Shown here one piece after another: positions 3,517 through 27,752 of a stretch of DNA of 35,946 nucleotides; the first letter of the stretch is position 1, and each line of letters opens with the position of its first letter. This stretch comes from an uncultured bacterium (lineage in GTDB: Bacteria; DAOPZR01), in NCBI GenBank assembly GCA_964637655.1, contig CAZWUZ010000006.1, positions 1 through 35,946 on the forward strand. The letters are read 5' to 3'. A program made the translations under genes and the position numbers. A model generated the notes under the pieces. It had not been told where the DNA came from. It was given only the letters and a program-made list of their open reading frames with translations, and did not search any database.

Positions 3517-5904
3517 TCAGGGTATTACCCGCCGCAATTTTACGGCGAGGGTTGCCGGGTGGAGCAGAGCGTCCGTTGCGTAGCGCAGCGGCTGGCGTAT
3601 GATGCGGCGACGGAGAACAAAGGCGTCCCAACGTTGTTGGGCACGGGCGCGGATTGTTTCGAGGTCGGTGGCGGTCAGTTCCTGCGTGCGCAAAACCGCG
3701 GTACGATATCCGTCGTAGCGGTTATAGTCCTCAGAAATCAGCAAGCCTTCGCGTTTTCCCTGCTCGTACAAGCGGCTGCCCGGAAAGGGCGTGGCAAGCG
3801 AAAACTGCAACGTATCCGGTGCAAGTTTCAGGGCCAGCCGGATAGTGGCTTCGGCGGTGGCGCGGGTTTCGCCCGGCAATCCAAAGCAGAAGGTGAGATG
3901 GGTTTTGATGCCGAGCTTGCGGGTGAGACGGATATTGGCTGTGGCGAGCCGCAAGTCGAGCTTTTTGCCGATGCCGTTGACGATGTCCTGGTCAGCGGAT
4001 TCGATGCCGTATTTCACCGCGTGCAGGCCGCTGGCGCGCAGGGCGGCGAGCAGTTCGCGGTCCATGAGGTCGGCTCGCGCCATCATCGCCCAGGGCACGC
4101 GCAGGTTGCGCCGTTGCAGTTCCGCGGCGAAGGCGAGCAACCGTTCCCGCCCGATATTGAAGGTGTCGTCGTCGAAATAGACCGAGGCGTAGCCGCCGTG
4201 GCGGACGAGATGTTCAAACTCGTCGGCAATGGCAGCGGCGGCGCGCGGGCGATATCTGGCGCTGCCGTACATGACCTGCGGCCAGGCGCAGAAGCTGCAC
4301 TGGTAGGGGCAGCCGCGGCTGCCCCACATCTGCACGCTGGGCAGGGGCATGTCGCCGGGGACATCATAATATCGGGTCATCGGGAAAAGATGGCGCGCCG
4401 GCCAGGGCAGGGCATCGAGATCGGCGAGAGGCAGGCGCGGGCTGCTGCAGGCCGGCGTGCCGCCGGCCTGCCGATACACGAGGCCGGGCACGATGTCGAG
4501 TGGCCGGTCGGCGACGTGGGCGCGCAGCAGGTCGCGCAGGGTAATCTCATATTCGCCGTGCAGGGCGATATCGATAGCGGGGTGGGCGGCGAGAAAAGCC
4601 GGGTCACTGAGCGGGGCGTGGTTGCCGACGGCAATAAGCGTGGTCTGGGGCAGGCGCCGGCGCAGTTCGCGAAAATCAGCGAGGTCGGAAGCGAGCGAGG
4701 CGGTGGCGATTTCCAGCACGACCAGTTCCGGCAGCGCCGCCGCCGCACGGTCGTAAAAGGCGGCGGGGGTGAGATGGTCCGCTATCCCGTCGATGACCGC
4801 GACTGTGTGCCCGTCCTGTTCGAGCAGCGCGGCGGCGTAGGCGAGGAAGAAGGGGAAGGGCATATAATTGCTGTCGCAGCGCTCGAAATGCGGCCAGCGG
4901 CTGCCGGCCCGCACGCCGTAATGCCCCTCGCTCTGCCACGGGGCGTTGGCGAGCAGTACCCGCCGGCCGGTTGACCGTACGAGGCTGCCGACAGGTTGGG
5001 AGGCCGGCAGGAGCGAGCGCCGCGCATGTTCGCGGGGGATGGCGACAATCAGCGTGTAGGAGAAAACCTCGAGGCAGCGGCGGACAAACGATGCCAGCTC
5101 AATGATTGGCAGCAGCGAACCGTGCGACCCGGCGAGCTCGAACAGGTCGTAAGCTTCGGCCTGGAGCCGGACGAGAATCTCGTGGGCGGTAATCCCTGTT
5201 TGTTGCAGGACGACGGGCCAAAACTCGAACAGCACCACCGGTTGCCGGCCATGTCGACTGAGCAACTGGCGCATGCCGGCGAGGGCCAACCCTTCCGCGC
5301 CCTGAATGTCCATTTTTATGAGGTCGACCCGGTCAATGTGCTCCTCGCGGATGAAATCATCGAGGGCGAAACACAGCACGCTGGTGCCGGCGGTATCCGG
5401 GGTCAGGGCCAGGCGGTAATCCACCATCTGTCGGCTTGGCGCCAACCGGGCAGTGCCGGTGACATCTGCCACCGCGGCGGCGATAGCCCGGGCATTGTCA
5501 CAATGATTCGCGGCAAGATTTTTGGTCAGCAAGGCATAGTTGCCGGGCGCGGGTTCGAAGGCGAATAACCGCCCGGCCGGACCTGCCAGACGGGAGAGCA
5601 AGAGGGAGAAGTATCCGATATTGGCGCCGATATCGAATACGGTATCGCCCGGTTGGACGAAGCGGGACAGGAAAACAGCGGTTTCCGGCTCATAAACTCC
5701 GTTATTCAGGGAAAGGTGCAGTTCATCGTCCGGATCCAGGAAAATGGTCATGCCATTGCCTTGCACCGCCGGTGGTCGGAGCCGTCGCATCAGTGGACGG
5801 AAAAATCCGGCATGGCGGGAATCGTAAGGGAAGAGAAGGTTGAACCCGCGCCGCAATAGAAAGTGGAACAGTTTTTTCCAAAGGGCAAAAGCCAGTGTGC
5901 GCAT
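3517..5904 (-). CDS. bifunctional FkbM-family SAM methyltransferase (N) / B12-binding radical SAM enzyme (C)
   Basis: The N-terminal ~300 aa carry FkbM-type methyltransferase motifs (DIGANIGYFSL, FAFEP, LIKMDIQGAE). The C-terminal half is a class B rSAM with a B12-binding Rossmann block (LIAVGNHAPL) and the cysteine motif GSRGCPYQCSFCAWP, followed by a TIM-barrel region (YFDDDTFN...). 795 aa. The ATG is at 5902-5904 on the minus strand. Confidence 0.85.
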   Translation of the reverse strand: MRTLAFALWKKLFHFLLRRGFNLLFPYDSRHAGFFRPLMRRLRPPAVQGNGMTIFLDPDDELHLSLNNGVYEPETAVFLSRFVQPGDTVFDIGANIGYFSLLLSRLAGPAGRLFAFEPAPGNYALLTKNLAANHCDNARAIAAAVADVTGTARLAPSRQMVDYRLALTPDTAGTSVLCFALDDFIREEHIDRVDLIKMDIQGAEGLALAGMRQLLSRHGRQPVVLFEFWPVVLQQTGITAHEILVRLQAEAYDLFELAGSHGSLLPIIELASFVRRCLEVFSYTLIVAIPREHARRSLLPASQPVGSLVRSTGRRVLLANAPWQSEGHYGVRAGSRWPHFERCDSNYMPFPFFLAYAAALLEQDGHTVAVIDGIADHLTPAAFYDRAAAALPELVVLEIATASLASDLADFRELRRRLPQTTLIAVGNHAPLSDPAFLAAHPAIDIALHGEYEITLRDLLRAHVADRPLDIVPGLVYRQAGGTPACSSPRLPLADLDALPWPARHLFPMTRYYDVPGDMPLPSVQMWGSRGCPYQCSFCAWPQVMYGSARYRPRAAAAIADEFEHLVRHGGYASVYFDDDTFNIGRERLLAFAAELQRRNLRVPWAMMARADLMDRELLAALRASGLHAVKYGIESADQDIVNGIGKKLDLRLATANIRLTRKLGIKTHLTFCFGLPGETRATAEATIRLALKLAPDTLQFSLATPFPGSRLYEQGKREGLLISEDYNRYDGYRTAVLRTQELTATDLETIRARAQQRWDAFVLRRRIIRQPLRYATDALLHPATLAVKLRRVIP

Positions 5905-5973
5905 GTCGTGCCTTTCCCGGAGAGCATAGCATAGGCCGGTATTTCAGCCAAATGTTGCCGCTGGCTTAAAGGT

Positions 5974-6795
5974 ATGTTACAAACTAGTCGAGTCACGGAG
6001 GCGAAGATGGACGGAAATCTGGCGGCGCGGTTCTACTCGAAATTCGGGGCGTTGGGGTGGAGGTTGTTTCGTCGCCGACGGTGGAACCGTGAACAGCTGA
6101 CGGCCATGGTGGCGGCCCAGGGTGAATGGGTCCATGACATTGAGTTGCCCTTCGGGATTTCGACGGGCGGGCTCAAGGTTTTTCCCGATCATGCGCAATT
6201 TCGCTGGCAGTTCATCCGCGATTATGTGCTCCGGCACTGTGCAGGTGAGTCTTTTCTCGATGTCGGTTGCAGTGACGGTTTTTTCTGCCATGAAGCGCGC
6301 AAGGCGGGCGCGTCGTATGTCCTGGGAATCGACGAGCATGGCCCATCATTGGTCCGGGCCCGGATCGCCGCGGACGCGCTCGGCCGCTGGATCGAATATC
6401 GCCAGGCCAGCGTCTACGACCTGCCGCGCCTGCGCTTCGTTCCGAAACAGTTTGATAACATCTTGTTTCTCGGGGTTTTTTACCATTTGCGCCATCCCTT
6501 GCTGGCTCTGGATATTCTTTTCGCGCGGGCGCGGAAACGGATATTCCTGCATTCGATGATCAAGGGTCCCACGGAACCGGTCGCAGTGGATGCGGATTAC
6601 CACCTCGGCGAAGAGAAAGTGTTTTTCCGGCCGGGTTTTCCGAAACTGCACTTCATCCGGGGAAATTTTGCTTACGATGAAACCTCGAAGATCTGGTGGG
6701 TACCCAACGCCAACGGCCTGCGGGAAATCGTGCACAGCTATCCGTTCCGGAACATCATCGAACTTCGCCCGGATATGTATATCCTCGAAAAATAG
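5974..6795 (+). CDS. class I SAM-dependent methyltransferase (DUF1698/CmoB-like fold)
   Basis: Motifs LDVGCSDGFF (motif I) and LGIDEHGPSL, plus FLGVFYHLRHP, are typical of the CmoB-like MTase family. An alternative start ATG at 6007 has GGAGG 5 nt upstream. Confidence 0.8.
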   Translation: MLQTSRVTEAKMDGNLAARFYSKFGALGWRLFRRRRWNREQLTAMVAAQGEWVHDIELPFGISTGGLKVFPDHAQFRWQFIRDYVLRHCAGESFLDVGCSDGFFCHEARKAGASYVLGIDEHGPSLVRARIAADALGRWIEYRQASVYDLPRLRFVPKQFDNILFLGVFYHLRHPLLALDILFARARKRIFLHSMIKGPTEPVAVDADYHLGEEKVFFRPGFPKLHFIRGNFAYDETSKIWWVPNANGLREIVHSYPFRNIIELRPDMYILEK

Positions 6796-6842
6796 CGGTC
6801 ATCCGGCTTGCGCGGTGTTGTTTCGGCAAGTATAGTTGGACT

Positions 6843-8048
6843 ATGTTTAGCGATCGAATAAGAAATCGCCTGGCGAGTTACCGGCTGTACTGCGGGGTGC
6901 GGCACGGGGCAAGGGCTTTTGCCGCGCCGTACCGGTTCTCGCTGTGCCCGACCTATCGCTGCAATCTGCGCTGTTCCGCCTGCTGGTGCTATTCGCCGCT
7001 GGTGGGTGAGCGCGGACTGGCGCCGGAACTGCGGCAGCAGGAAGTTCCGTATGCGCGCCTTGAAAAACTGGTGCGGGACCTGCTGGCGCAGGGAACGGTG
7101 TATTTTTCCGTTTCGGGCGGGGGCGAGCCGCTGCTCTATCCGCAGATCCTGCCGCTGCTCCGCCTGATCAAGCACAACCCGCGTATCCGCTGCGATCTTA
7201 ACACCAATTTCACCGTGGCGACGGAGGAAGTGATTGAAACCCTGGTGGCTTGCGCGGTCGACGCGGTGATTGTCAGCGTGTGGGCGGGCACGCCGGAGAC
7301 CTATGCCGCGGTCCATCCGGGCGCGCCGGACGGCCTGTTTGCGAAGATGACGGCTGATTTGCGCCGCCTGAACCACCTGCGGCGCGAACGCGGCGCGGCC
7401 ATGGAGGTGGTGGTCAATCACGTGGTGTACCGCGACAACTGGCGCGAGTTTCCCGCCCTGGTCGAGTACGCCTACCTGACCGGCTCGACCCAATTGCGTT
7501 TCACGCATGTCGATATCGTCGCGGGCAGGACCGACGCGCTGGCTTTGACTGAGGAAACGCGGTTATCGCTGCTGGCGCAAGCGGAGCGGATAGCTGATTT
7601 GCAGCGGGAATATGAGGTGCGGCACGGCTGCCGGGTGGTCCTGGTCGAGTTCGACCAGTTCCTGCGGCGCTTGCGCCGGACCGGGCCGGCGGCCGGCCAA
7701 TACGACGCCCCGGTGATGCGGCGGCATCAATGCTACGCGGGCTGGGGTTTCTTCCAGTTGTTTCCCGACGGGAACTTTAATTCATGCTGTCGCATCGTTG
7801 AACCCCGCGGCAACCTGGCGCAGAATGATTTTGCCGTGGTATGGAACGGGCCCGGACAGCAGGCATTCCGCCGCCTGACCCGCGACCTTGACCGGGAAAA
7901 GGTTGATGCCCATAACCTGCCCTGCGGCGGGTTATGCGATAACCTGCAGGACACGCGGCATGTGGCGCAGCGGCTTGCCGCCTTGACGAAACCGGAGCGT
8001 CTGCTGCTGGATCTGCTGTGCGGTCGCGCGCCCGGGACCGGACAATGA
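6843..8048 (+). CDS. radical SAM enzyme with full C-terminal SPASM domain
   Basis: CxxxCxxC motif CPTYRCNLRCSAC near the N-terminus, then a GGGEPLL glycine-rich SAM motif. C-terminal cysteines (CYAGWGF...CCRIVEP...GN...C...CGGLCDN) fit a SPASM auxiliary-cluster domain. The first ATG after the upstream stop is 6843; the track ORF at 6696 overlaps the preceding gene. Confidence 0.85.
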   Translation: MFSDRIRNRLASYRLYCGVRHGARAFAAPYRFSLCPTYRCNLRCSACWCYSPLVGERGLAPELRQQEVPYARLEKLVRDLLAQGTVYFSVSGGGEPLLYPQILPLLRLIKHNPRIRCDLNTNFTVATEEVIETLVACAVDAVIVSVWAGTPETYAAVHPGAPDGLFAKMTADLRRLNHLRRERGAAMEVVVNHVVYRDNWREFPALVEYAYLTGSTQLRFTHVDIVAGRTDALALTEETRLSLLAQAERIADLQREYEVRHGCRVVLVEFDQFLRRLRRTGPAAGQYDAPVMRRHQCYAGWGFFQLFPDGNFNSCCRIVEPRGNLAQNDFAVVWNGPGQQAFRRLTRDLDREKVDAHNLPCGGLCDNLQDTRHVAQRLAALTKPERLLLDLLCGRAPGTGQ

Positions 8049-9169
8049 AGGCGCGGTTGCGGGATGCCTGGCGACGGGCCCGGTCCGGGAATTACCGTTC
8101 CGGCCTTTTCCACCCCGCTGAGGCGCGGTTTCTGTCGGTGTTTCTGGAACTGCATAACTGGTGCGCGACGAAATGTAAAATGTGCCATCACGGGTTCCTG
8201 CCCGACCCGGTGCCGGCGAGCATGGCGCCCGCGGATTATCGCCGGCTGGCGGCCAATGTCTTCTCCCATGTGGCGGAAATAACTTTCTGCCCCGGCATGG
8301 AGCCGCTGGCGCATCCGCACTTCATCGAATACCTGGAAATGGCGAAACAGGAATATGGCGTCCCGCATATGGCGATGATGTCGAATTTTACGATAATGGA
8401 CGAACCGTCGGCGCGCAGCATAATCCGCAACGGGGTCGAGCGCATCCAGATTTCCCTTGACACTTTCCAGCCCGAGCTCTATGCGTGGATAAAAACCAAT
8501 GCCCGGCTGGAGCCGGTGCTGGAGAATATCCGCCTTTTCCAGCGGGTCCGGCGGCGGATGGAAGTTCCGGGGCCGGAACTGGAGGCGAATTTCGTCATCA
8601 TGCGGCGCACGGTGGCGGCCTACAGCGGAGAATACTTTGCCTGGTTGCGGGAACTTGGTTTTACCCGGGTTCACCTGTGGCATCTGCATATCAACAAGCT
8701 GGCAACTTCGCTGCGCGGTGAATCGATGTGGGAGCACAAGGAAGAATACAACGAGTTTCACGGCCGGGTGCGGCGTGACGCGGCGGCCAACGGCATTGAA
8801 CTATTCCGCCTGCCGGAACCGTTCACGCTGCCGGGCGCGCCATTTTCGCCGCCAGCCGCGGGTGAAACCCGGAAATGTACTTTCCCCTGGCACAAGATTC
8901 AGGCCTTGCATAACGGCACCTTCACCCCGTGCGAGTTCTGGCACAACGAACCGTTCTGGGGTAACCTGTTCGAGCGGCCGTTCATGGATATCTGGAACGA
9001 CCTCGACTACCGGCGCCTGCGCTGGGAAATCAACACGGGCAACCTGACCCGCCGCTGTTGCCGAAACTGCGTTTCGATGTCATCATTGGCCGGCCGCGCC
9101 GATGACGCGGCGGCGTTCGTGGAAATCGATACGAGCGCCACTGATCCGGCGGGGGCGAAAGGAAATTGA
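8045..9169 (+). CDS. radical SAM enzyme, twitch/partial-SPASM type (paralog 1)
   Basis: CxxxCxxC motif CATKCKMCHHGF. C-terminal cysteines CEFWHNEPFWGNL ... CCRNCVSM (C-x9-GNL ... CCxxC). ATG 8045 overlaps the upstream stop (ATGA). Confidence 0.85.
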   Translation: MKARLRDAWRRARSGNYRSGLFHPAEARFLSVFLELHNWCATKCKMCHHGFLPDPVPASMAPADYRRLAANVFSHVAEITFCPGMEPLAHPHFIEYLEMAKQEYGVPHMAMMSNFTIMDEPSARSIIRNGVERIQISLDTFQPELYAWIKTNARLEPVLENIRLFQRVRRRMEVPGPELEANFVIMRRTVAAYSGEYFAWLRELGFTRVHLWHLHINKLATSLRGESMWEHKEEYNEFHGRVRRDAAANGIELFRLPEPFTLPGAPFSPPAAGETRKCTFPWHKIQALHNGTFTPCEFWHNEPFWGNLFERPFMDIWNDLDYRRLRWEINTGNLTRRCCRNCVSMSSLAGRADDAAAFVEIDTSATDPAGAKGN

Positions 9170-9171
9170 TC

Positions 9172-10332
9172 ATGGTTGACCAGACCGTGCTGTCCCGCCT
9201 GCTGCACAGCCGGGCCGTGCAGCGGATAAAGAATGAAATGCCGCCGGCGGTTGTGGCGCGACTGAAGCTGATGATCCCGGGCTATCACCGGCACCTCCGG
9301 TTTATCCCGCCGCGCGAGCGGTTCCTTACGGTCGTCATGGACCTGCAGAACAGCTGCAACCTCGCCTGCAAGATGTGTCACTTCGGTTTTCTTGGCGATT
9401 ACCCGAAGGAACCGTATGCTATTTCTCCGGCTAATTTCCGCCGTTTTGCCGATAATGTCCTTACCCGCACGGAGGAAATAGCCTTCTCGCCGTGCACGGA
9501 ACCGCTCATGCACCCGCAGTACGGGGAACTGCTCGACATCCTGGCCGAGTATCGCGTGCCGAAAATGTGGATGATGACCAACCTCAACCTGCTCACCCCG
9601 GCGATTGCGGAAAAGCTGGTGGCGATGCGCTTCGAGCGACTGCTGATCTCGCTCGACAGCTTCCGGCCGGAGGTTTACGAGTCGATCAAATGCAAGTCGA
9701 ATTTTGCGCGGGTGATCGATAATATCAAGATGGTCCAGGACATCAAACGCCGCACCGGCAGCGTGTACCCGAAAATCCATTTCAATTTCGTGCTGATGAA
9801 AACCACGGTCGACAATTATCCCGGCTACCTTGATTTCGTCGAATCGATTGGCGGGGAGCAGGTCGGCTTTTTCCATGTCGTGGTCTACCAGGGCGTGGAG
9901 AAGATGCGGGGCGAGAGCATGTGGCATCACCGCGAGCTGTACAACCGTTTTCATGATCAGGTGACGGCCGATGCGCGGCGCACGGGGATAAATATCGAAC
10001 GGCTGCCGGGAAAATTCGGGCAACCCGCCGCACCTGCCGACTGCGGTGCGGATGCCGGCGCTCCGCTGTGCCGCTATCCGTGGTATATCCTCGTGGTCTA
10101 TCCGCAGGGTAGTTTTAAACCCTGCGAATTCTGGTTCAACCAGAAGGTCTGGGGCAACCTGGTTACCGACCGTTTTGAGGATGTCTGGAACAGCGAGGAC
10201 TACCGCCGCCTGCGCTGGGAAGTCGATACGCGCCGGCCGTCGCGGTCCTGCTGCCGGAACTGCGTGTCCATGGCCGCGCTCGACGGCAGACCCGGCAGTG
10301 GCGATGCCTTCCGCGAGATTGTCTTCGAATGA
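9172..10332 (+). CDS. radical SAM enzyme, twitch/partial-SPASM type (paralog 2)
   Basis: Collinear paralog of 8045..9169, with CNLACKMCHFGF, SLD, CEFWFNQKVWGNL, YRRLRWE and CCRNCVSM all conserved. ATG at 9172 lies 10 nt after AGGA. The track ORF start at 9166 is a TTG overlapping the upstream stop. Confidence 0.85.
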   Translation: MVDQTVLSRLLHSRAVQRIKNEMPPAVVARLKLMIPGYHRHLRFIPPRERFLTVVMDLQNSCNLACKMCHFGFLGDYPKEPYAISPANFRRFADNVLTRTEEIAFSPCTEPLMHPQYGELLDILAEYRVPKMWMMTNLNLLTPAIAEKLVAMRFERLLISLDSFRPEVYESIKCKSNFARVIDNIKMVQDIKRRTGSVYPKIHFNFVLMKTTVDNYPGYLDFVESIGGEQVGFFHVVVYQGVEKMRGESMWHHRELYNRFHDQVTADARRTGINIERLPGKFGQPAAPADCGADAGAPLCRYPWYILVVYPQGSFKPCEFWFNQKVWGNLVTDRFEDVWNSEDYRRLRWEVDTRRPSRSCCRNCVSMAALDGRPGSGDAFREIVFE

Positions 10333-13055: not shown

Positions 13056-13070
13056 TGCCGCCGCCTGAGA

Positions 13071-15925: not shown

Positions 15926-15934
15926 GAGGTGGGC

Positions 15935-17434
15935 TCAGCCGCGCAACAGGCCGGCGAACGCGTTGAGGATTTTCTTGCCCGCCAGGAGCAGGCGGAAAAC
16001 GAACCGGTTCTTGATTCGGGCGACATCAGCCATGAGCGCTGAATATTCAGTGGATAAGGCGCTGAATTGGCCCTGCTTGCGTTCGAGATCGTGCCGGCAG
16101 TCGGCAAGCTGGTGATTCAAAAGGGATATTTCGTGGCGGCGGTCAGTCAGTTGCCGGTTAAGCTCAGTTGCTTGTTGGTTAAGCTCAGTTGCTTGCCGGT
16201 TAAGCTCAGCCACGGTATTGAGAAAGCGTTCGCGCTGGCTGCGGTTGTTGTCGATGCCGCGCAGCAGGGAGCGGCTCATACGGCTGATGTGGTCGGTTTT
16301 ATTGCGCAATTTCACCGGGTTGGCGCAGAAGCGGGCGAGTGCGGCGGTGGCGGCGACCGGGTCGAAACATTCCGTCGCCAGTCGCTGCGCATTGGCGCCT
16401 TTGCGGGCGCAGATGGCCGGACTGGCAAAAATTTCGTCCAGCACAGCGGTGAGCTGCTCACTGTCGGCCGGGTCGATGACCCAACCGGCGTCGTACCGGT
16501 GGATCAGGTCGCTGTAATACATCCCTTCGCTGTAGATGACCGGCAGGCCGTGGTGGAGGTATTCGACGGTGCGCGTGGTTGAGGCCAGTTCGCGTTCGGG
16601 ATTGGGTAGGTACAGTTCAACGGCGGCGGAAGCGGTCAGCAGATGCTCGTGAAAATTTTCGTGGCTGACCAATCCGCTGATGGTCACCGTCGGCTGGCCC
16701 GCCAGGCCAGCCAAACGCCGGTCGCTGTTGCGGTAGACGAAATCGCCGGCGCAGACCCGGAGCCGCCCGTTATGCCGGTGGCAGTAGTCGGCGATGGTGT
16801 TTAGCGAATCGCCGTAGTCGAGCCAGCGCCAAAGAACGCTCCCGAAAAATAATTCCGGTGGCGACGGGTATTCCCGGTGCCGCGGCGGTTCGCCGGCGCT
16901 GCTCAGCGGGCAGAGTGCGACCGGGTCGCGCTGCAGGTCGACCCCGGCCAGCATCAGGAACGGATACAGGTAGGCCTTCTGGCGGGGATTGGAGACGAGG
17001 AAAAGGTCGCCAAGGTGCAGGGTGGCGAGTTTTTTCTGGATGAAGAGGAAGTCGGCTTCGCGCTGCTCAAAGACGTTTTCCAGGGTAAGCGAGGCCGGCA
17101 GGTCGAAGACGATGGGGATGTCGCGGTTGGCCGTGTCCGGGGTAAAGGCCAGTGCGATAGTCCAGGGGGAAAACAGGATGCAATCGGGTTTGACCGAGGC
17201 GATGACTTCATTATGGTTGGCGTTGTCATGCGCCAGGTCCAGCCATTCTGCGTGAGGCGAAATGTTGTTGTGCTGTTGTAAAAAGTCGATGTTCGATTGC
17301 TGAAAGGAAATACGTACTGTATGCCCGTGCTGGCGCAAGCCGTGGCTCAGGGCATTGATGCGAACTCCGCGCCCGCCCGTGGGTATGCCAGGCAACGGAG
17401 TGAGTTCGGAAGTAAAAATCAGAATTGTGGCCAT
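15935..17434 (-). CDS. glycosyltransferase (GT-B-like N-domain) with C-terminal coiled-coil containing heptad tandem repeats and a terminal amphipathic helix
   Basis: N-terminus MATILIFTSELTPLPGIPTGGRG is GT-B-like. The C-terminal ~110 aa are coiled-coil (ELNRQATELNQQATELNRQLT...), ending in RFVFRLLLAGKKILNAFAGLL. ATG at 17432-17434 overlaps the Wzt stop (TGATG). The upstream track extension to 17620 overlaps wzt and is rejected. Confidence 0.75.
   Translation of the reverse strand: MATILIFTSELTPLPGIPTGGRGVRINALSHGLRQHGHTVRISFQQSNIDFLQQHNNISPHAEWLDLAHDNANHNEVIASVKPDCILFSPWTIALAFTPDTANRDIPIVFDLPASLTLENVFEQREADFLFIQKKLATLHLGDLFLVSNPRQKAYLYPFLMLAGVDLQRDPVALCPLSSAGEPPRHREYPSPPELFFGSVLWRWLDYGDSLNTIADYCHRHNGRLRVCAGDFVYRNSDRRLAGLAGQPTVTISGLVSHENFHEHLLTASAAVELYLPNPERELASTTRTVEYLHHGLPVIYSEGMYYSDLIHRYDAGWVIDPADSEQLTAVLDEIFASPAICARKGANAQRLATECFDPVAATAALARFCANPVKLRNKTDHISRMSRSLLRGIDNNRSQRERFLNTVAELNRQATELNQQATELNRQLTDRRHEISLLNHQLADCRHDLERKQGQFSALSTEYSALMADVARIKNRFVFRLLLAGKKILNAFAGLLRG
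16151..16213. repeat. 21-bp tandem repeat (about 2.9 copies) ttgccggttaagctcagttgc inside the coiled-coil coding region
   Basis: Direct reading of 16151-16171, 16172-16192 (2 mismatches) and 16193-16213 (partial). The unit length is a multiple of 3, so on the minus strand it encodes ATELNRQ heptads. Confidence 0.9.
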
Positions 17435-18177
17435 CAGGCGTGTCCGGTCGTGGCGGTGAGGAATTGCCGGATGGTCTCCGGGGCCGGTCCGGAAGTAACG
17501 AGATGGCCGTGGTCGAGCCAGATAACCCGGTCGCACAGGGCCTCCACCGCGGGCATCATGTGCGAGACGATGATGATGGTCTTGTGCTGACGCTTGAGGT
17601 CGAGGATATGGGCGCTGCACTTCTCCTGAAAGGCGGGGTCGCCCACAGCGATGATTTCATCGATGAGCAGCAAATCGAAGGGGACATGGATGGCGATGGC
17701 GAAACCGAGGCGCAGGCACATGCCCGACGAATAGGTATAGAGCCGGGTGTTGATGAAATCGCCCAGGCCGGAAAATTCGACGATGGCGGAAAAGCGCGCG
17801 TCGATTTCCGCGCGGGTCAGCCCGAGGATACTGGCGTTGAGGTAAACATTCTCGCGCCCGGTCAGTTCGGGATGGAAACCCGCCCCGAGCTCGAGCAGTG
17901 AGGAAATCGCGCCGTTGACCGCGACGCCGCCCGCGGTCGGGGTGGTGACTCCGGCGATCGCCTTGAGCATGGTACTCTTGCCGGAACCGTTGGAGCCGAT
18001 AATGCCGAGGCATTCGCCGCGCGCGGCGGTAAAAGACACGTCACGCAGCGCCCAGAACTCACGGAATGTGCCGACGCCGATGAGCGCGGGCAGCACGGAG
18101 CGGATAAGCGACGGCTTCTCGAAGTACACCCGGTAGCGCTTGCTGACGCCGGCGACGGCGAGGACAGGGTCAGACAT
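17434..18177 (-). CDS. wzt: ABC-2 type polysaccharide/glycan exporter ATP-binding protein (Wzt/KpsT/TagH-like), short form without C-terminal carbohydrate-binding domain
   Basis: Walker A GSNGSGKST, ABC signature YSSGM, Walker B LLLIDE. 247 aa, i.e. the nucleotide-binding domain only. ATG at 18175-18177 (minus) overlaps the wzm 3' end by 8 nt. Confidence 0.9.
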   Translation of the reverse strand: MSDPVLAVAGVSKRYRVYFEKPSLIRSVLPALIGVGTFREFWALRDVSFTAARGECLGIIGSNGSGKSTMLKAIAGVTTPTAGGVAVNGAISSLLELGAGFHPELTGRENVYLNASILGLTRAEIDARFSAIVEFSGLGDFINTRLYTYSSGMCLRLGFAIAIHVPFDLLLIDEIIAVGDPAFQEKCSAHILDLKRQHKTIIIVSHMMPAVEALCDRVIWLDHGHLVTSGPAPETIRQFLTATTGHA

Positions 18178-18946
18178 GGTCGGCCAGGTTGTGCCGCAGG
18201 CGGCGGAAGACCAGCCAGCCGCCGAACCCGAAGAAGAGGCAGACGGCGATGGTGAAGGTGGTTAGTTGCCGCGAGGGGAACATGCCGTTGATGATCAGGT
18301 CGCGGTAGAGCACGGTGAGCCCCGCCATGGGATTGAGCAGGAAAATGTAGAGCAGCTGCTTGGAAATGCCCTGCACCAGTTCGAGCGGGTAGAAGATCGG
18401 GGTCAGGTAAAACCATAACAGCAGGGCGATTTCGACGACATAGCGGGTGTCGCGGCAATAGACCTGCGCCGCCGCCACCACGAGGGCGAGGCCGAGGGTG
18501 AAAACCAGTTGCAGCAGCATGACCAGCGGCACCGCCAGCAGATACCACGACCAGCGGATATCGAAAAGCAGTAAAACCAGCATGGACAGGGCAAAATTGA
18601 TGAAATTGGCCAATACCACCGAGGCGGGCAGTAGTTCCCGGGGAAAACGGACCTTTTTTATCAGGTTGCCGTTATCGACTATGCTGCCGACCACTGTGGC
18701 GATGGTGAGGGAAAAGAAGGTCCAGGGGAAGAGCCCGGCGAGCAGGAAGGTCGGGGTGATGTCGAATTTCATCAGGTACTTGAAAACGATGAGAAAGACA
18801 CCCATGAGCGCGAGCGGCACGACCAGCGACCAGAGGAAACCCAGCCAGCTGCTCTTGTAGCGGACCTTGAGTTCCTTGAAGGCGAGGGTGCAGAGCAGCT
18901 CCCAGCGCTGCCGCCACCCCGGTGCGGTCGTCTGCATGGGGGCCAT
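18170..18946 (-). CDS. wzm: ABC-2 type transporter permease (Wzm-like)
   Basis: Hydrophobic 6-TM protein with the ABC-2 permease signature region (FLWSLVVPLALMGVFLIVFKY..., LNPMAG). Start chosen at ATG 18944-18946 (MAPMQTT), after the upstream stop at 18970. ATG 18937 is also possible. Confidence 0.8.
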   Translation of the reverse strand: MAPMQTTAPGWRQRWELLCTLAFKELKVRYKSSWLGFLWSLVVPLALMGVFLIVFKYLMKFDITPTFLLAGLFPWTFFSLTIATVVGSIVDNGNLIKKVRFPRELLPASVVLANFINFALSMLVLLLFDIRWSWYLLAVPLVMLLQLVFTLGLALVVAAAQVYCRDTRYVVEIALLLWFYLTPIFYPLELVQGISKQLLYIFLLNPMAGLTVLYRDLIINGMFPSRQLTTFTIAVCLFFGFGGWLVFRRLRHNLADHV

Positions 18947-18969
18947 TGTAGCGTCGGGAACGCGGGCTG

Positions 18970-19830
18970 TCAACGCGGGCGGGGGAGAAACGCGGCCAGC
19001 CAGGCGGCGGGATAGAATAGTGAGGCACCGCGTGTGGCCGGCAGGTCGGTCAGCGCGCGGAGCAGCGACCAGCCGAGCAGCCACACTTCATGCCATAGCA
19101 GGCGCGGCAGGCGGCGGGCAAGTTCTGCGGCGGGCAGTTTCAGCAGCATGCGCCGCCGCGCATATTCCTGCCGGTAGAACCGGCGCAGCGAACGCTGCCG
19201 CCCCATCGTGCCGCCCCACGCGTGCGTGGCGGTGAATGACGGATGCACGGCGACCGTGTGCCCAGTGCGACGCAGCCGCCACGACAGGTCGACATCCTCG
19301 TAATACCACAACCGGGTATCCCAGCCGCCGGCAGCGTCGACCGCGGCGCGGCGCCAAAGCGCGCAGGCGCTGCAGAGCGCGTCGACGGCAACCGATGCCG
19401 TGGCGGCCGGGGGCGCCAGCAACACGGTCGTGGCGGCGGGAGTGATCCGGGCGCCGGCGTTGTGCACGGTGCCGTCAGGGCAGCGCAGCACCGGCTGCAC
19501 CGCGGCGAGCGCCGGGTCGGTGTCGAGCGCGGCCACCATGCCGGCCAGCGTTGCCGCGTCGATGACCGCGTCGGTGTCAAGGGTGAGCACGTATGGCGCG
19601 CTCCCTTGCGCCCACGCGGCGGCGCGCGCGGCGGACGGGCCACCGCGCCGCGGCAGGCGCATGACCTGCACGCGCATGTCATGCGGCAGCGCCTCCGCGG
19701 TGCCGTCGGTCGAAACATCGTCGCCGACAGTGATGGCGGCGACGCCGGGCAGCGGCAGCAATTGCGGCAGCAGCGCCGCGAGGCGGTCGCGCTGGTTATG
19801 CGCGGGAATGACGATATCGATGGTGGTCAT
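18970..19830 (-). CDS. GT2 family glycosyltransferase
   Basis: Begins at MTTIDIVIPAHNQ, with DDVSTDGT (the D-x-D region) and later YYEDVDLSWR, all typical of the GT-A/GT2 fold. The ATG overlaps the upstream stop (ATGA at 19827-19830). The track N-extension to 19974 is rejected. Confidence 0.8.
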   Translation of the reverse strand: MTTIDIVIPAHNQRDRLAALLPQLLPLPGVAAITVGDDVSTDGTAEALPHDMRVQVMRLPRRGGPSAARAAAWAQGSAPYVLTLDTDAVIDAATLAGMVAALDTDPALAAVQPVLRCPDGTVHNAGARITPAATTVLLAPPAATASVAVDALCSACALWRRAAVDAAGGWDTRLWYYEDVDLSWRLRRTGHTVAVHPSFTATHAWGGTMGRQRSLRRFYRQEYARRRMLLKLPAAELARRLPRLLWHEVWLLGWSLLRALTDLPATRGASLFYPAAWLAAFLPRPR

Positions 19831-20633
19831 CGGGACACCAGCAGGCGCAGCGCCGCCAGCCAGCGGCAGGGCAACGTCAGCAGCAGCGGCCAGAGCAGTG
19901 CGGGTGCGTCGAGACAGCGGCGCGCCACGGCCGGCAGGTTGAGCAGTGGCAGCAGCCAGCAGCGCATGAACCATGGCAGCCCGTGCCGGCGGCGCACGAG
20001 ATGCTCAAAGTAATGGTAGCGGTAGAGCAGTCGGCAGAAGGAGACGATGGTGTCAGCACGGTGATGCTCCGCCCGCGCGGCTGCGCTGCGCTGCAGCGTC
20101 AGTCCGCGCGCCCGCAGCCGCCGCCCGAGATCATAGTCCTCGCCGTTGCTGCGGTAGCGTTCGTCGAACCCGCCGGCGGCACGCAGCGCCTCCGTGCGAT
20201 AGAGCACGCAGAGGCCGGGCAGGAACGCGAGCGGCTCCGGCGGCTGCTGCGCGAGGAAACGCGCGCGGAACCGGTCGTAGACGGTGCAGGCGACTGCCTC
20301 GCTGATGGTCGCGCCGCACCCGGCGGCATCTGCCGGCAGCGTGGCACCGAGCTGCGCGAGGCAATCCGGCGCGGGAACGACATCGGCATCGATGAAGAAA
20401 AGGAGGTCGCCGGTGGCCGCCGACAGCGCGGTGTTGCGCGCCGCGGCGAGCCCGCGATTGGTCTCGTGGCGCAGCAGGCGGACACCATCGGGGACCGTGA
20501 GCGGCGGCACCGAGCCGTCGTCAACCACGATGATCTCTGCCGGGGACAGCGTCTGTGCCTGCAGTGCCGCCAGCGCGCGCGGCAGGTGCTCCGGCTGATT
20601 GCGCACGCAGAGGGCGGCAGTGACGGATGCCAT
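19827..20633 (-). CDS. GT2 family glycosyltransferase
   Basis: Motifs SVTAALCVRNQ, IIVVDDGS, FIDADV and NGEDYDLGRRL indicate GT-A/GT2. The ATG overlaps the upstream stop (TGATG at 20631-20635). Confidence 0.8.
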   Translation of the reverse strand: MASVTAALCVRNQPEHLPRALAALQAQTLSPAEIIVVDDGSVPPLTVPDGVRLLRHETNRGLAAARNTALSAATGDLLFFIDADVVPAPDCLAQLGATLPADAAGCGATISEAVACTVYDRFRARFLAQQPPEPLAFLPGLCVLYRTEALRAAGGFDERYRSNGEDYDLGRRLRARGLTLQRSAAARAEHHRADTIVSFCRLLYRYHYFEHLVRRRHGLPWFMRCWLLPLLNLPAVARRCLDAPALLWPLLLTLPCRWLAALRLLVSR

Positions 20634-21877
20634 CAGTTCCTTCCGGCCCGGCGCTGTGCGACCAGTTCCGCGTAGAGCGCGCGGTAGGCGTCGGCGACAT
20701 GCACCCAGGTGTGGCGGGCGGTGACCAGTTCGCGGCCGGCGCGGCCGAGGCGCGCGCGTTGCGCATCGTCGCCGGCCAGTTCCTGCATGATGGTCGCGAG
20801 TGCGGCGGCGTCGTCGGGCGGCACGAAGCGTGCCGCATTGCCGTCGGCACCGGCGAGGTCGCGTTGCGGCGGCGCCTCGGCGAAGACCACCGGCAGTCCG
20901 GCAGCCCAGGCGTCGAGCGCGGCGATGCCGAACGAATCGGTGACGGTCGGATAGAGAAACACGTCGGCGGCGGCGTAGAGCTGCGCCTTGTCTTCCCCGG
21001 GAAAATCGGGGACGAGGGTAAGCCGCGCGCGTGCCGTCGCCGGGAGGCGTTCTGCTGCGGCGTGCACTTCTGCTGCGTACGGGCTGCGCGTGCTCCCCGC
21101 GAGCAGCAGGTGGCAGTCGGTGCCGGCGGCAACGCAGCGGGCGAAGGCGTCGAGGATGAGCGGCAGTCCCTTGCCCGGAATGAACTGCCCGGCATACAGG
21201 AACACCGTGCCATCAAGCCGCCAGCGCGTGCGGGCGGCGCTGCGGTCGACGCCGTCCGTCCAGCCGGGGTCGGCACCCGCGGCGATGAGGTGCACACAGT
21301 CAGCGGCGACGCCGTTGCGGACAGCACACTCGCGCTCGAATGGCGTGTGTGCGACATAGGCAGCAGCGCGACGGGTGAACCGCCAGGTGTACGGGTGGCG
21401 GTGCAGCGGCTCGCGGTCATGGTAGGCCCCGACGAGCACCAGCGGAGTACCGGTCAGCGGCGCCAGCCATGCCGCGGCAGGCATCTGCAGGCAGGGGAAG
21501 GTGGTCGCCATGACGATGTCGTGACAGCCGTGCAGCAGGCGGGGGAGGAGCGCAGGCATACGCGGTCCGAAACGGACGTAGCGCAGATGCGCGCCCGTCA
21601 TCCCGTCGCCACAGAAGGCGATGGCCCGGTCGAGCCACCGGGTGCCCCCGCGCCAGGTGCGCAGCCGCTCCACCCGCACGCCGTTGATGACCTCCACGCC
21701 GCAGGGTAATCGCTCGCGCTGCGGCAGATTGAAATCATCGCAGCAACAGCCGTCCGGGCAGAGTACGGTGACCCGGTCTCCGTGACGGTTGACCAGCAGT
21801 TCTGATACACGTTGTACGCGGTATTCACTCCCCCCCCGCGCTGGCGCGTACCCCTGAACGATATGCAGGATATCCAT
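20633..21877 (-). CDS. GT4 family glycosyltransferase (first gene of minus-strand operon)
   Basis: MDILHIVQGYAPARGG is a GT4 N-terminus. C-terminal motif YPTVTDSFGIAALDAWAAGLPVV (E-x7-E-like region). ATG at 21875-21877 (minus). Confidence 0.8.
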   Translation of the reverse strand: MDILHIVQGYAPARGGSEYRVQRVSELLVNRHGDRVTVLCPDGCCCDDFNLPQRERLPCGVEVINGVRVERLRTWRGGTRWLDRAIAFCGDGMTGAHLRYVRFGPRMPALLPRLLHGCHDIVMATTFPCLQMPAAAWLAPLTGTPLVLVGAYHDREPLHRHPYTWRFTRRAAAYVAHTPFERECAVRNGVAADCVHLIAAGADPGWTDGVDRSAARTRWRLDGTVFLYAGQFIPGKGLPLILDAFARCVAAGTDCHLLLAGSTRSPYAAEVHAAAERLPATARARLTLVPDFPGEDKAQLYAAADVFLYPTVTDSFGIAALDAWAAGLPVVFAEAPPQRDLAGADGNAARFVPPDDAAALATIMQELAGDDAQRARLGRAGRELVTARHTWVHVADAYRALYAELVAQRRAGRN

Positions 21878-23085: not shown

Positions 23086-23086
23086 T

Positions 23087-25783: not shown

Positions 25784-25880
25784 CAGGGCACCTCGTCGTC
25801 GGGATATGCGCAGCATACCTTGCCCGTTCCGCTACCGTCAACCGTAGTGCCGGAGAAAAGAAGAAAAGAGAGAAGAAAAG

Positions 25881-27621: not shown

Positions 27622-27658
27622 AGGTCGTCTCCCTCCATGGAGTCGGTTGCTGCTCGAT

Positions 27659-27686: not shown

Positions 27687-27752
27687 TATGCCGGCAGAAT
27701 AAACGATACAATTAGAGCAAAACAGAGAGATATAACGATACAAAAAAGCCGG

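Follow-up and report, generated by a model that had tools for sequence, protein, structure and literature searches.

An island of about 18 kb (3517-21877) within the window, which is the whole analysed stretch of 35,946 nucleotides from an uncultured bacterium, combines common glycan assembly and export genes with six radical SAM (rSAM) enzymes, as identified by Pfam and NCBIfam profile searches. Its probable product is a cell-surface glycan made by an ABC-transporter-dependent (Wzm/Wzt) pathway, tailored by the rSAM enzymes and lipid-linked before export. The reading is built on observed domain content, operon coupling, gene fusions and co-occurrence across phyla; what we infer are the carrier lipid, sugars as the substrates of the rSAM enzymes, the succession of steps and each individual reaction. 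No published description of such a locus was found in open-access text, in agreement with the initial annotation, which knew of no precedent.

Gene content and organization of the island

All rSAM, methyltransferase, glycosyltransferase (GT) and Wzm/Wzt genes are held in three tightly coupled transcription units (Table 1). The rSAM set divides equally into enzymes that have a B12-binding-type domain and enzymes that have a short SPASM/twitch domain, three of each, and the CX3CX2C motif is present in all six proteins. The six rSAM enzymes, the FkbM and class I methyltransferases and Wzm/Wzt of the initial annotation were reproduced by Pfam and NCBIfam at the same positions, and every CxxxCxxC protein falls into the rSAM superfamily. 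The six GT domains counted initially were retained in part: five are clear, while the domain described as "GT-coiled-coil" (g12) is marginal (E = 1e-3, BLASTP not significant).

Table 1. Features of the island and of its flank, with coordinates in the window and profile matches.
Gene	Position	Strand	Assignment	Profile matches
g04	3517..5904	-	FkbM-type methyltransferase + B12-binding-type + radical SAM domains; trifunctional-looking	PF05050 4e-17, TIGR01444 2.5e-30; PF02310 1.1e-7 (exactly on Pfam cutoff); PF04055 2e-16
g05	5974..6795	+	Class I SAM methyltransferase, first gene of g05-g09	Pfam Methyltransf_23/25/11
g06	6843..8048	+	rSAM with abridged SPASM/twitch domain, paralogue family A	PF04055 2.3e-15; PF13186 25.9 bits
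g07	8045..9169	+	Twitch-type rSAM, family B	PF04055; PF13186 36.8 bits
g08	9166..10332	+	Twitch-type rSAM, family C	PF04055; PF13186 46.9 bits
g09	10329..13055	+	B12-domain rSAM (residues about 90-480) fused to GT4 (residues about 497-905)	Radical_SAM 3.5e-20; GT4 2.3e-30
g10	13071..14807	-	B12-domain rSAM, last gene of minus-strand operon	PF02310 6e-15; PF04055
g11	14804..15925	-	GT4 glycosyltransferase; 4-nt overlap with g10	Pfam GT4
g12	15935..17434	-	Probable degenerate GT-B domain + C-terminal helix/coiled coil of ~120 residues	Glycos_transf_1 (under cutoff)
g13	17434..18177	-	Wzt, ABC-transporter ATPase, nucleotide-binding domain only (247 aa)	PF00005
g14	18170..18973	-	Wzm, ABC-2 permease	PF01061 33.4 bits
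g15	18970..19830	-	GT2 glycosyltransferase	PF00535 1.8e-16
g16	19827..20633	-	GT2 glycosyltransferase	PF00535 1.2e-22
g17	20633..21877	-	GT4 glycosyltransferase, first gene of minus-strand operon	PF00534 1.8e-20
g18 + g19	22033..24493	+	Alkaline-phosphatase-superfamily ("sulfatase") proteins, N-terminal membrane anchors	PF00884

The minus-strand operon comprises eight genes, from g17 to g10, joined by overlaps of 1-8 nt or by one 9-nt gap, and the plus-strand unit comprises g05-g09, of which g06-g09 overlap by 4 nt (as between g06 and g07). The listed open reading frames overlap and their likely starts leave overlaps of 1-8 nt, so that the operon is translationally coupled and the tight packing noted initially holds. 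Thereby, the conserved g10 and g11 share one translationally coupled unit with wzm and wzt. Intergenic gaps in the island range from 7 to 155 bp, with 69 bp between the divergent g04 and g05. The rSAM genes account for six of eight consecutive genes and their synteny is kept across phyla, and this clustering and cross-phylum synteny are far beyond chance. The window contains neither sugar-nucleotide pathway genes nor an initiating phosphoglycosyltransferase, a ligase or an outer-membrane export component. The island leaves no space for a precursor peptide gene, no small open reading frame is common to independent dense loci, and neither a hopanoid gene nor an fGly-type sulfatase target was found. 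A distance of 4.3 kb, with three unrelated mixed-strand genes, separates the island from the flagellar gene fliD.

Recurrence in other bacteria

The most widely conserved component of the island is g10, with about 80 homologues at 37-58% identity. Its orthologues form 48 dereplicated groups and occur, among others, in Dependentiae, Elusimicrobiota, Planctomycetales, Chlamydiota, Aureabacteria, Coatesbacteria, Syntrophobacteraceae and Fundidesulfovibrio. For 32 groups the context extends over 12 kb or more; of these, 27 have homologous GT4 genes, 15 Wzt orthologues, 13 Wzm, 11 a second B12-type (g04-type) rSAM and 10 twitch-type rSAMs, all counts being conditioned on g10 and obtained by blastx against the window's own proteins. 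Next to g10 orthologues are found orthologues of the GT4 half of g09 (33-47% identity; 31 of 48 groups), g13 (46-57%; 16 of 48) and g11 (38-49%; 15 of 48), and the rSAM part of g04, lacking FkbM, has orthologues at 40-50% identity in 14 of the 48 groups. Gene order on the same strand is Wzm-Wzt-g11-g11'-g10-g09C-g09C'-g04R-(PMT_2) in the related loci L019 and L025 and g10-Wzm-Wzt-SPASM rSAM-(MT)-GT4 in L009, L018, L022 and L092. Neighbours in relatives include Wzt_C, PMT_2 GT-C, GT9, NDP-sugar epimerases/dehydratases, sulfotransferases and a carbamoyltransferase, which are typical of surface glycan loci.

No Wzm/Wzt is encoded within the contig or bounded cassette of the dense multi-twitch-rSAM loci L002 and L003, so that the rSAM/GT core does not strictly require the exporter. 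In its minimal form, the pair of g10 and a GT4 gene adjoins infB, with no other glycan genes there. The linkage of rSAM enzymes to GTs is also apparent from fusions, namely rSAM-GT4 in g09 and rSAM-GT2 elsewhere (g10-family proteins P0085 and P0086); g10 is moreover fused to a SPASM rSAM in P0059 and P0061. A second protein carrying both halves of g09 was not found, and in Dependentiae L002 the halves are separate neighbouring genes (8156-9658 and 9658-10884). The combination of rSAM, GT and Wzm/Wzt genes is not a chance juxtaposition: the rSAM genes recur with GT and Wzm/Wzt genes and not with peptide precursors. The previously proposed ABC-transporter-dependent surface glycan with rSAM tailoring is supported by this recurrence, the fusions and the coupling, with sugars as the presumed substrates.

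Enzymes and exporter

All family-level matches of the rSAM enzymes are far below the curated NCBIfam cutoffs. For g04, which has CX3CX2C at residue 532, the best family is HpnJ (1e-68), aligned over nearly the full length but at 232 bits versus a cutoff of 577, and the top PDB sequence match is AprD4 (1.7e-30), followed by TokK. The B12-binding match of g09 (28 bits) is below the cutoff of 32.1, yet the protein aligns over a long region to NCBIfam models of B12-type rSAM enzymes. In NCBIfam, g10 is BchE-like (155 bits versus a cutoff of 481). Its AF2 model (pLDDT 92.5) matches best the fold of AprD4 (E 2e-21, TM 0.72-0.74 on target), with TsrM, OxsB, CysS and TokK as the next matches. AprD4 is the closest solved relative of g10 and g04 by sequence and of g10 also by fold. 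Cobalamin use by the B12-type enzymes is putative, and AprD4, the closest structure, is not known to be a cobalamin enzyme. As AprD4, HpnJ and BchE are not methylases, C-methylation is only one option for the B12-type rSAM enzymes, and the emphasis placed on it by the initial annotation is not specifically supported by these best matches of the two conserved enzymes.

The small enzymes g06, g07 and g08 all score above the gathering threshold of PF13186, and each has only about five Cys residues in its C-terminal domain, so that all three are twitch-like or abridged SPASM proteins, and the earlier division into one SPASM and two twitch enzymes is unsupported. Homologues of g06 (23-47% identity, often multi-copy) occur in L001-L005 and weaker ones (28-29%) directly after Wzt in L009, L018, L022 and L079. 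Homologues of g07 at 40-46% identity are present in L001 and L002, both from Dependentiae. The g08 subfamily is rare, with seven matches among 5.8e9 proteins; the exhaustive search returned one other 50%-cluster representative (42% identity), and orthologues at 42-56% identity are found in L002-L005. In the PDB search for nearest relatives, which covered g08 among the twitch enzymes, BtrN was the only match, across the twitch domain. The methyltransferase g05 is TIGR04290-like (177.7 bits versus a cutoff of 300), and class I methyltransferases adjoin SPASM rSAMs in L006, L009 and L093.

Among the five clear GTs, g15 and g16 are MftF-like below cutoff (2.8e-26 and 1.1e-29), and g17 has only generic GT4 matches in NCBIfam; ATG 19830 of g15 forms an ATGA overlap with g16. 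The marginal g12 also gives coiled-coil-type matches and a match to MshA (8e-4), whereas pairwise BLASTP does not significantly identify it as a GT. Its start overlaps the wzt stop (TGATG), its model contains a single helix (380-498, pLDDT >90) with an unresolved N-terminal part, and it has no homologue in 93 related loci, being unique to the window.

The ATPase g13 matches TagH (1e-54), galactan Wzt (4e-44) and DrrA (1e-33) in NCBIfam. It has no carbohydrate-binding extension, in contrast to the Wzt of many relatives; orthologues beside g10 usually have C-terminal extensions, with Wzt_C in L093 and ASD1/Alpha-L-AF_C-like domains in L006, L009 and L092. The permease g14 matches galactan Wzm (1.2e-12); its start is uncertain (TTG 18973, or ATG 18946/18937), and a sigma70-like site with 11 of 12 matches is located at 18973-18945. 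Beyond g17, g18 and g19 show partial EptA/CptA-type matches, and g19 reads ATAPAH in place of C/S-x-P-x-R of sulfatases and hence has no fGly target. Members of the same superfamily are found inside the related loci L006, L027 (40% identity), L041 (Phosphodiest) and L047, and g18/g19 may serve the pathway as accessory enzymes in the periplasm.

Proposed pathway, alternatives and known systems

Synthesis of the glycan would take place at the cytoplasmic side of the membrane, with a polyprenyl lipid as the presumed carrier and with four GT4-type and two GT2 enzymes assembling the chain from common nucleotide sugars. The sugars would be remodelled while still cytoplasmic: each of the three B12-domain rSAM enzymes has a GT4 as its physical or genetic partner and may act on the residue that this GT4 just installed, by analogy through C-methylation (GenK, MoeK5), deoxygenation (AprD4) or ring contraction (HpnJ, Cds). 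The three BtrN-like twitch enzymes could act on secondary carbons by oxidation, epimerisation or another kind of activation, and the FkbM and class I methyltransferases could add O-methyl groups. Wzm/Wzt would then export the finished polymer. Outside the cytoplasm, the membrane-anchored g18/g19 may attach or trim phospho-substituents.

An unlikely alternative, modelled on HpnI/HpnJ in hopanoids or on calditol synthase in archaeal tetraethers, is that the rSAM enzymes modify a membrane glycolipid instead of a polysaccharide, either in its lipid part or by converting the sugar head group into a cyclitol; a GT4 would place the sugar on the lipid, the paired B12-type rSAM would transform it and Wzm/Wzt would flip or export the product. 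The HpnJ match of g04 fits, although its score is far below cutoff, as does the minimal conserved unit of g10 and one GT4, a GT4 that has among its closest solved relatives MshA and PimA, the latter an enzyme that glycosylates a lipid of the membrane. Moreover, a CDP-alcohol phosphatidyltransferase and a PimA-like GT4 lie nearby in L006, and a GT followed by an rSAM on lipid-linked sugars has precedents (PMC9204698; PMC13459092). However, genes for lipid synthesis (shc, hpnH, polyprenyl or acyl transferases) are absent from the window, the presence of six GT domains here and of 4-5 GT4 genes in relatives points to an oligo- or polysaccharide, and the relatives' Wzt_C or other carbohydrate-binding Wzt extensions, GT9 and PMT_2 fit polymer export.

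It is also rather improbable that the rSAM/GT core tailors a glycan linked to flagellin, an S-layer or another surface protein, in place of a free or LPS-type polysaccharide. The proximity of fliD would fit, as would L007 from the cultured species Fundidesulfovibrio butyratiphilus, where an MptE-like (Maf-type) gene lies <10 kb from the core (g09C, g11, g10, g04R) and the core precedes a series of genes for NeuB, CMP-sugar synthetase and aminotransferase; flagellin, FlgK, FlgN and FlgM are 5 kb away in L010, and L006, L009 and L025 encode PMT-type GT-C enzymes, a type that can use proteins as acceptors. Yet flagellin glycosylation is cytoplasmic and does not need Wzm/Wzt, here in the same operon, the window has no Maf, PMT or oligosaccharyltransferase gene, unrelated genes separate fliD from the island, and the cassette also occurs in Dependentiae and in other lineages or contigs with no flagellar genes in view.

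There is little probability that the product is a small secreted pseudo-oligosaccharide or aminoglycoside-like compound with a DrrAB-type efflux/self-resistance pump: AprD4 and BtrN are aminoglycoside enzymes and DrrA is among the Wzt matches, but Wzt fits TagH/Wzt better than DrrA (184 versus 117 bits), aminotransferase, cyclitol synthase and resistance genes are lacking, relatives carry Wzt_C, GT9 and PMT_2, and the cassette occurs in reduced-genome symbionts such as Dependentiae. Largely refuted is the juxtaposition of an rSAM cassette for RiPP or cofactor maturation with an unrelated O-antigen-type locus, for which SPASM/twitch and B12-type rSAMs as common RiPP maturases, weak NCBIfam matches to ApyD, TIGR03975 and others, and the exporter-free L002 and L003 could be cited, but against which stand the short gaps, the missing conserved small open reading frame, the accompanying GT4 orthologues, the rSAM-GT fusions, the coupling of g10 and g11 to wzt and wzm, and RiPP-family scores far below cutoffs.

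The preferred reading, an exported, rSAM-tailored surface glycan, agrees with the nearest solved or characterised relatives, which are sugar-active: AprD4 (g10, g04), BtrN (g08) and HpnJ (family match of g04). The recurrence of a partial rSAM/glycan pairing in distant groups points to uncharacterised chemistry of cell-surface sugar remodelling, for which MoeK5, HpnJ and Cds are precedents of rSAM chemistry on lipid-linked sugars (PMC9204698; PMC13459092).

Gene content and operon structure of the island

The sequence is a complete contig of 35,946 bp from an NCBI metagenome-assembled genome with a G+C content of 65.5%, and its genes are numbered g01 to g23 in order, of which g04 to g17 constitute the island. 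Profile searches over all large open reading frames reproduced the inventory of genes and domains given in the initial annotation, barring three corrections, and confirmed six radical SAM (rSAM) proteins in the island, each of which (6/6) contains the CX3CX2C motif.

Positions, strands and assignments of the genes of the island and of further features of the contig
Feature	Position	Strand	Assignment
der and rSAM gene	17-736, 724-2043	+	der (engA) and 3' part of a DUF512/TIGR03279-type radical SAM gene
AmmeMemoRadiSam fusion	2043-3509	+	part B (Memo-like, N-terminal) and part A (AMMECR1, C-terminal)
g04	3517-5904	-	FkbM methyltransferase, B12-binding-type domain, radical SAM
g05	5974-6795	+	class I methyltransferase
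g06	6843-8048	+	radical SAM with short SPASM/twitch domain
g07	8045-9169	+	radical SAM with short SPASM/twitch domain
g08	9166-10332	+	radical SAM with short SPASM/twitch domain
g09	10329-13055	+	B12-type radical SAM fused to GT4
g10	13071-14807	-	B12-type radical SAM
g11	14804-15925	-	GT4
g12	15935-17434	-	weak GT-B signal, long C-terminal helix
g13	17434-18177	-	Wzt
g14	18170 to about 18973	-	Wzm
sigma70-like site	18973-18945	-	candidate internal promoter
g15	about 18970-19830	-	GT2
g16	19827-20633	-	GT2
g17	20633-21877	-	GT4
g18, g19	22033-24493		alkaline-phosphatase-superfamily proteins
GH13 gene	24494-25816	-	alpha-amylase family
fliD	26206-27711	-	fliD
coiled-coil-rich gene	27833-29959	+	708-aa membrane-anchored protein
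DUF3686 gene	29974-35598	+	1,874-aa protein

Judged from the likely start codons, the genes g17, g16, g15, g14, g13, g12, g11 and g10 form one unit on the minus strand, in which neighbouring genes are joined by overlaps of 1-8 nt or separated by a 9-nt gap; the wzt/g12 junction reads TGATG, and g16/g15 and g11/g10 are joined by ATGA-type overlaps. Through these overlaps and short junctions, translational coupling links the rSAM gene g10 and its glycosyltransferase (GT) partner g11 to the exporter genes. The plus strand carries g05, then a 47-nt spacer and g06, the genes g06 to g09 overlap by 4 nt each, and the divergent genes g04 and g05 are 69 bp apart. Within the minus-strand operon, directly upstream of the candidate wzm starts, lies a near-consensus sigma70-like site (TTGACA-17-TACAAT, 11/12), and wzm, wzt and the downstream genes g12, g11 and g10 may therefore have a promoter of their own. 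None of the tRNA, tmRNA and Rfam families searched for, including cobalamin riboswitches, reached threshold anywhere in the 35.9-kb contig. The G+C content is uneven across the island (0.56 in g05, 0.59 in g08, 0.60 in g12 and wzm, and 0.70-0.72 in g15-g17, with 0.67-0.70 in the flanks), which suggests that its modules are of mosaic origin.

The exporter genes match PF01061 and PF00005 as well as the NCBIfam models of TagH and of the galactan Wzt/Wzm, and they overlap by 8 nt. The same transcription units encode five clear GTs and one marginal one: six GT domains had been claimed, and the sixth, the "GT-coiled-coil" protein g12, shows no significant BLASTP match to g11 or g17 and is predicted from its single sequence with a pLDDT of <50 across the N-terminal 390 residues, while its C-terminal helix of approximately 120 residues is solid in the predicted structure.

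Several genes outside of the island were also assigned. The AmmeMemoRadiSam fusion matches TIGR04336 and TIGR04335 above cutoff, its usual partner rSAM is not adjacent, and upstream of it lies the DUF512/TIGR03279-type gene that is cut by the contig end. The GH13 gene, located between the alkaline-phosphatase-superfamily genes and fliD, also matches a glycogen-debranching glucanotransferase domain. The 708-aa coiled-coil-rich protein is flotillin-like by eye and has no Pfam, NCBIfam or PADLOC match; the gene 3' of it encodes a protein with DUF3686 (8e-170), DUF7902 and an AAA ATPase domain, and for this pair PADLOC yields only a marginal mad8 match.

Families of the radical SAM enzymes

In g04, g09 and g10 a B12-binding-type Rossmann domain at the N-terminus precedes the CX3CX2C radical SAM domain in Pfam and NCBIfam searches; the B12-binding Pfam matches of g04 and g09 lie at or below the gathering score, and these calls are backed by long alignments to NCBIfam models of B12-rSAM families. 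The AlphaFold2 model of g10 is class-B-like (pLDDT 92.5), and its fold matches AprD4 best, followed by TsrM, OxsB, CysS, TokK and MgmA. AprD4, a radical SAM 1,2-diol dehydratase that deoxygenates an apramycin sugar, is also the closest relative in the PDB by sequence for both g10 and g04. The closest NCBIfam families are HpnJ for g04 and BchE for g10, each far below cutoff (for g04, 232.4 bits against a cutoff of 577.6 for the HpnJ equivalog model). Both families belong to the cobalamin-rSAM group without being methylases (PMC9204698). The emphasis that had been placed on C-methylation thus finds no specific support, since the closest relatives AprD4, HpnJ and BchE are non-methylases, and by analogy C-methylation is one among at least three plausible reaction types.

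The three enzymes g06, g07 and g08 match PF13186 above cutoff, yet each has only about five conserved cysteines in the C-terminal domain, and the seven-cysteine SPASM motif with two auxiliary clusters was found in none of the three. From the sequences these domains fit a one-cluster, twitch-like type as in BtrN, and a division into one SPASM and two twitch enzymes, as initially drawn, is unsupported. BtrN, a dehydrogenase with a twitch domain and an aminocyclitol substrate, is the sole PDB match of g08 (about 70 residues, E 2e-5), and g07 shares the conserved cysteine pattern of g08. Each of the three constitutes its own rare family; that of g08 is very rare, with seven matches among 5.8 billion clustered proteins, and besides g08 itself an exhaustive search gave a single 50%-identity representative, which is 42% identical to it. 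An anaerobic sulfatase-maturating (anSME) role for g06-g08 in the maturation of g18 and g19, which carry the Pfam label sulfatase and partially resemble phosphoethanolamine transferases, was rejected: no anSME model occurs among the listed NCBIfam matches (the best 25 for g06 and g08), and the idea is removed because g18 and g19 lack the Cys/Ser-x-Pro-x-Arg target, in the place of which g19 has ATAPAH and g18 has no motif.

Recurrence with glycosyltransferases and exporters in other bacteria

A scan of one genome per species with g08 yielded four loci, from Dependentiae, Elusimicrobiota, Planctomycetales and an unclassified bacterium, all of which carry a syntenic multi-rSAM cassette. Besides three to five paralogues of the twitch type, the cassettes encode orthologues of g11, of the rSAM portion of g04 and of the GT4 half of g09 (43-47% identity). 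A g10 orthologue (42-52% identity) is likewise present except in the Planctomycetales locus L005, where none was seen and the cassette is cut by the contig end. Such dense cassettes contain 6-8 rSAM segments within 11-15 kb, and no exporter adjoins the cassette in the Dependentiae locus L002 and in L003. In L005 (CAZPQS010000001, 1-10915) at least eight rSAM-homologous segments and one GT4 occupy 10.9 kb with almost no intergenic space, and the cassette extends past the fetched stretch. A TMEM260/PMT-like membrane protein (weak match) and a TPR protein flank the dense cassette of L003 (3088-4461 and 14430-16358), and L004 encodes a GDSL/TPR protein, a QueC-like ATPase and a carbamoyltransferase (5139-9854); the window has none of these accessory genes.

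The family of g10 is wider, with approximately 80 homologues at 37-58% identity, and its named sources further include Chlamydiota, Aureabacteria, Coatesbacteria, Schekmanbacteria, Syntrophobacteraceae and, as a cultured species, Fundidesulfovibrio butyratiphilus. Another 79 loci came from a scan of metagenomes. The segments of every locus were assigned to the best window protein by blastx, and dereplication at 85% identity left 48 groups of g10 orthologues. Context of at least 12 kb was available for 32 groups; in these, a GT4 of the g11 family or of the family of the g09 GT4 half accompanies g10 in 27, a Wzt orthologue (at least 45% identity) in 15, Wzm in 13, a g04-type rSAM in 11 and a twitch rSAM in 10, counts that are conditioned on g10, rest on blastx against the window's own proteins and come from metagenomic contigs of uneven length. 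All small open reading frames compared between L003 (GTDB genome, DAINAU010000013) and L049 (JGI contig Ga0116156_10000573) are 100% identical; these loci represent the same organism sampled twice and should not count as independent.

Gene order recurs as well. Two loci (L019 and L025) share the same-strand order Wzm, Wzt, two copies of g11, g10, two copies of the g09 GT4 half and the g04 rSAM part, followed by a PMT_2 GT-C enzyme, and four (L009, L018, L022 and L092) share g10, Wzm, a long Wzt, a SPASM rSAM, in part a methyltransferase, and a GT4. A minimal pair of g10 and GT4 adjoins infB, with no other glycan genes, in L010 and L011. The two halves of g09, fused in the window, are adjacent separate genes in Dependentiae, and g10-family proteins are fused to a GT2 (P0085, P0086) or to a SPASM rSAM (P0059, P0061) elsewhere. 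A chance juxtaposition of the rSAM genes with the GT and Wzm/Wzt genes, which the initial annotation had named as an outcome that would refute its reading, is contradicted by the neighbourhoods recurring among the g10 groups and by the rSAM-GT fusions. The window unites all recurrent modules and adds the FkbM domain, g05, g12 and two GT2s of its own.

The extra genes of the annotated relatives are those of envelope glycan loci: their Wzt proteins carry Wzt_C domains or other carbohydrate-binding-like extensions, and their neighbours encode PMT_2 GT-C enzymes, GT9, NDP-sugar epimerases and dehydratases, sulfotransferases, a carbamoyltransferase, class I methyltransferases and alkaline-phosphatase-superfamily proteins as counterparts of g18 and g19.

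Proposed function, alternatives and comparison with known systems

In the cobalamin-type or other rSAM pathways of HpnI/HpnK/HpnJ, Cds and MoeK5, a GT places a sugar on a lipid-linked acceptor which is then remodelled by the rSAM enzyme (PMC9204698, PMC13459092). Sugar-directed radical chemistry is the most coherent reading of the island because of these precedents and the resemblances to AprD4, BtrN and HpnJ. We tentatively propose, with a confidence that stops short of calling it likely, that a widespread and unrecognised module of GT plus radical SAM enzyme in bacterial envelope glycan pathways edits sugars already present in the lipid-linked chain. The most likely mechanism for the island starts with the GT4 and GT2 enzymes, which would build the glycan from common nucleotide sugars on the cytoplasmic side of the membrane, with a polyprenyl as the carrier. 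Each B12-type rSAM with its fused or adjacent GT4 would act on the newly added residue, the twitch enzymes would catalyse oxidation or epimerisation at secondary carbons, O-methylation would fall to the FkbM and class I methyltransferases, and Wzm/Wzt would export a product that g18 and g19 may perhaps modify outside of the cytoplasm. On the broader reading of an editing module, the reactions would be C-methylation, deoxygenation, or ring contraction to carbasugars, the resulting polysaccharide chemistries would not be predictable from nucleotide-sugar pathways, and no other example would be as elaborate as the window, where six enzymes would feed one exporter. It is even conceivable that, where relatives have Wzt_C-type domains, the radical modification acts as the terminal cap required for export.

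Surface polysaccharide diversity normally arises through nucleotide-sugar pathways and simple transferases. If the rSAM enzymes edit sugars on the lipid-linked chain during or after its growth, glycans of anaerobes and many uncultured phyla would be diversified at a new level, new carbohydrate radical chemistry would become available, and large unannotated "B12-binding radical SAM" families that are now labelled as BchE or YgiQ-type would gain a biological context. Since the recurring core is present in the DNA of the cultured F. butyratiphilus, the question is experimentally approachable. In open-access full text no description of rSAM enzymes with Wzm/Wzt, O-antigen or polysaccharide assembly was found, "radical SAM" and "Wzm" being co-mentioned only in unrelated passages of two papers, and the sole related item is an unstudied rSAM gene in the capsule cluster of C. 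jejuni HS:19. The export and assembly logic is already known, and secondary metabolism offers known cases of radical chemistry on sugars; the hard-wired combination of both in a widely distributed envelope-glycan module appears to be undescribed.

Among the alternatives, a glycolipid head-group pathway is unlikely. It would follow the GT-then-rSAM logic of HpnI/HpnJ, the calditol synthase Cds and MoeK5, and HpnJ is the top family match of g04; unlike in those pathways, the six island rSAMs lie in a multi-GT Wzm/Wzt export operon, and hopanoid (shc, hpnH, hpnI, hpnK), tetraether and moenomycin genes are absent from the window. Tailoring of a protein glycan on flagellin is somewhat less probable still: fliD is 4.3 kb from the island, and the core has in its vicinity an MptE-like (Maf-type) gene and a run of NeuB and CMP-sugar synthetase genes in F. 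butyratiphilus (L007, 1-495) and flagellin, flgK, flgN and flgM in Coatesbacteria (L010, 16598-21722), whereas the window contains only fliD and no Maf-type or nonulosonic-acid genes, such genes being encountered in L007. A link of the rSAM/GT4 core to flagellar glycans is possible in some lineages. A secreted pseudo-oligosaccharide is very improbable; g08 resembles BtrN of butirosin biosynthesis (cf. neomycin NeoN) in its rSAM core and single-cluster C-terminal domain, and BtrN has a carbohydrate-like substrate as in the chemistry proposed here, but unlike for BtrN no aminocyclitol pathway is present in the window. Maturation of a RiPP, the least probable alternative, was rejected, as no precursor peptide gene fits the intergenic gaps of 7-155 bp and no small open reading frame is common to independent dense loci, the only match being that between L003 and L049. 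An anti-phage defence system, prompted by "GT4-conflict" Pfam matches, was likewise rejected by PADLOC, in which the rSAM part of g09 matched a candidate model only weakly (30 bits) and g17 matched none.

Groundwater Elusimicrobia contain rSAM-rich loci anchored on NifHDK paralogues with a proposed role in tetrapyrrole reduction (Meheust et al., bioRxiv 10.1101/765248), and as in the island many rSAM genes, some B12-binding, are packed in one locus of uncultured lineages including Elusimicrobia. Identity with these loci was rejected: they are a different thing because the window contains no Nif-like or tetrapyrrole genes, and it and the annotated parts of its relatives carry GT4 and Wzm/Wzt instead of Nif-like genes. 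With AprD4, TsrM, TokK, OxsB and CysS, g10 and g04 share an N-terminal Rossmann-type domain and an rSAM barrel, and the substrate of AprD4 is a sugar, as in the chemistry proposed for the island. Unlike AprD4, to which g10 and g04 are only 22-23% identical (74-120 bits against a cutoff of 500 for the NCBIfam AprD4 model), g10 has an additional C-terminal helical domain, and no AprD3-type reductase partner is found within the island.

The closest precedents for export are the Wzm/Wzt systems of O-antigen and wall-polysaccharide assembly (the E. coli O8/O9a polymannan system WbdABCD-Wzm-Wzt, Klebsiella O-antigens and TagGH). As in these ABC-transporter-dependent systems, adjacent Wzm and Wzt genes share an operon with genes of several GT4 and GT2 enzymes, and none of the 23 genes called in the window matched a Wzx flippase or Wzy polymerase family. 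The island shares methyltransferases with O8/O9a, where they cap the chains, and a coiled-coil protein with WbdD, the coiled coil of which serves as a ruler; its relatives share Wzt_C-type carbohydrate-binding extensions. An initiating polyprenyl-phosphate glycosyl-1-phosphate transferase (WecA), a ligase and outer-membrane export partners were not found in the 35.9-kb contig, and the missing WecA and ligase are not decisive because model systems often encode WecA and WaaL elsewhere. Unlike the known systems, the island has no sugar-nucleotide genes, and unlike the Wzt of many relatives that of the window lacks a binding domain. We know of no characterised ABC-transporter-dependent pathway that uses radical SAM chemistry, and what sets the island apart from these systems is its six rSAM enzymes, three of them fused to or paired with GTs.
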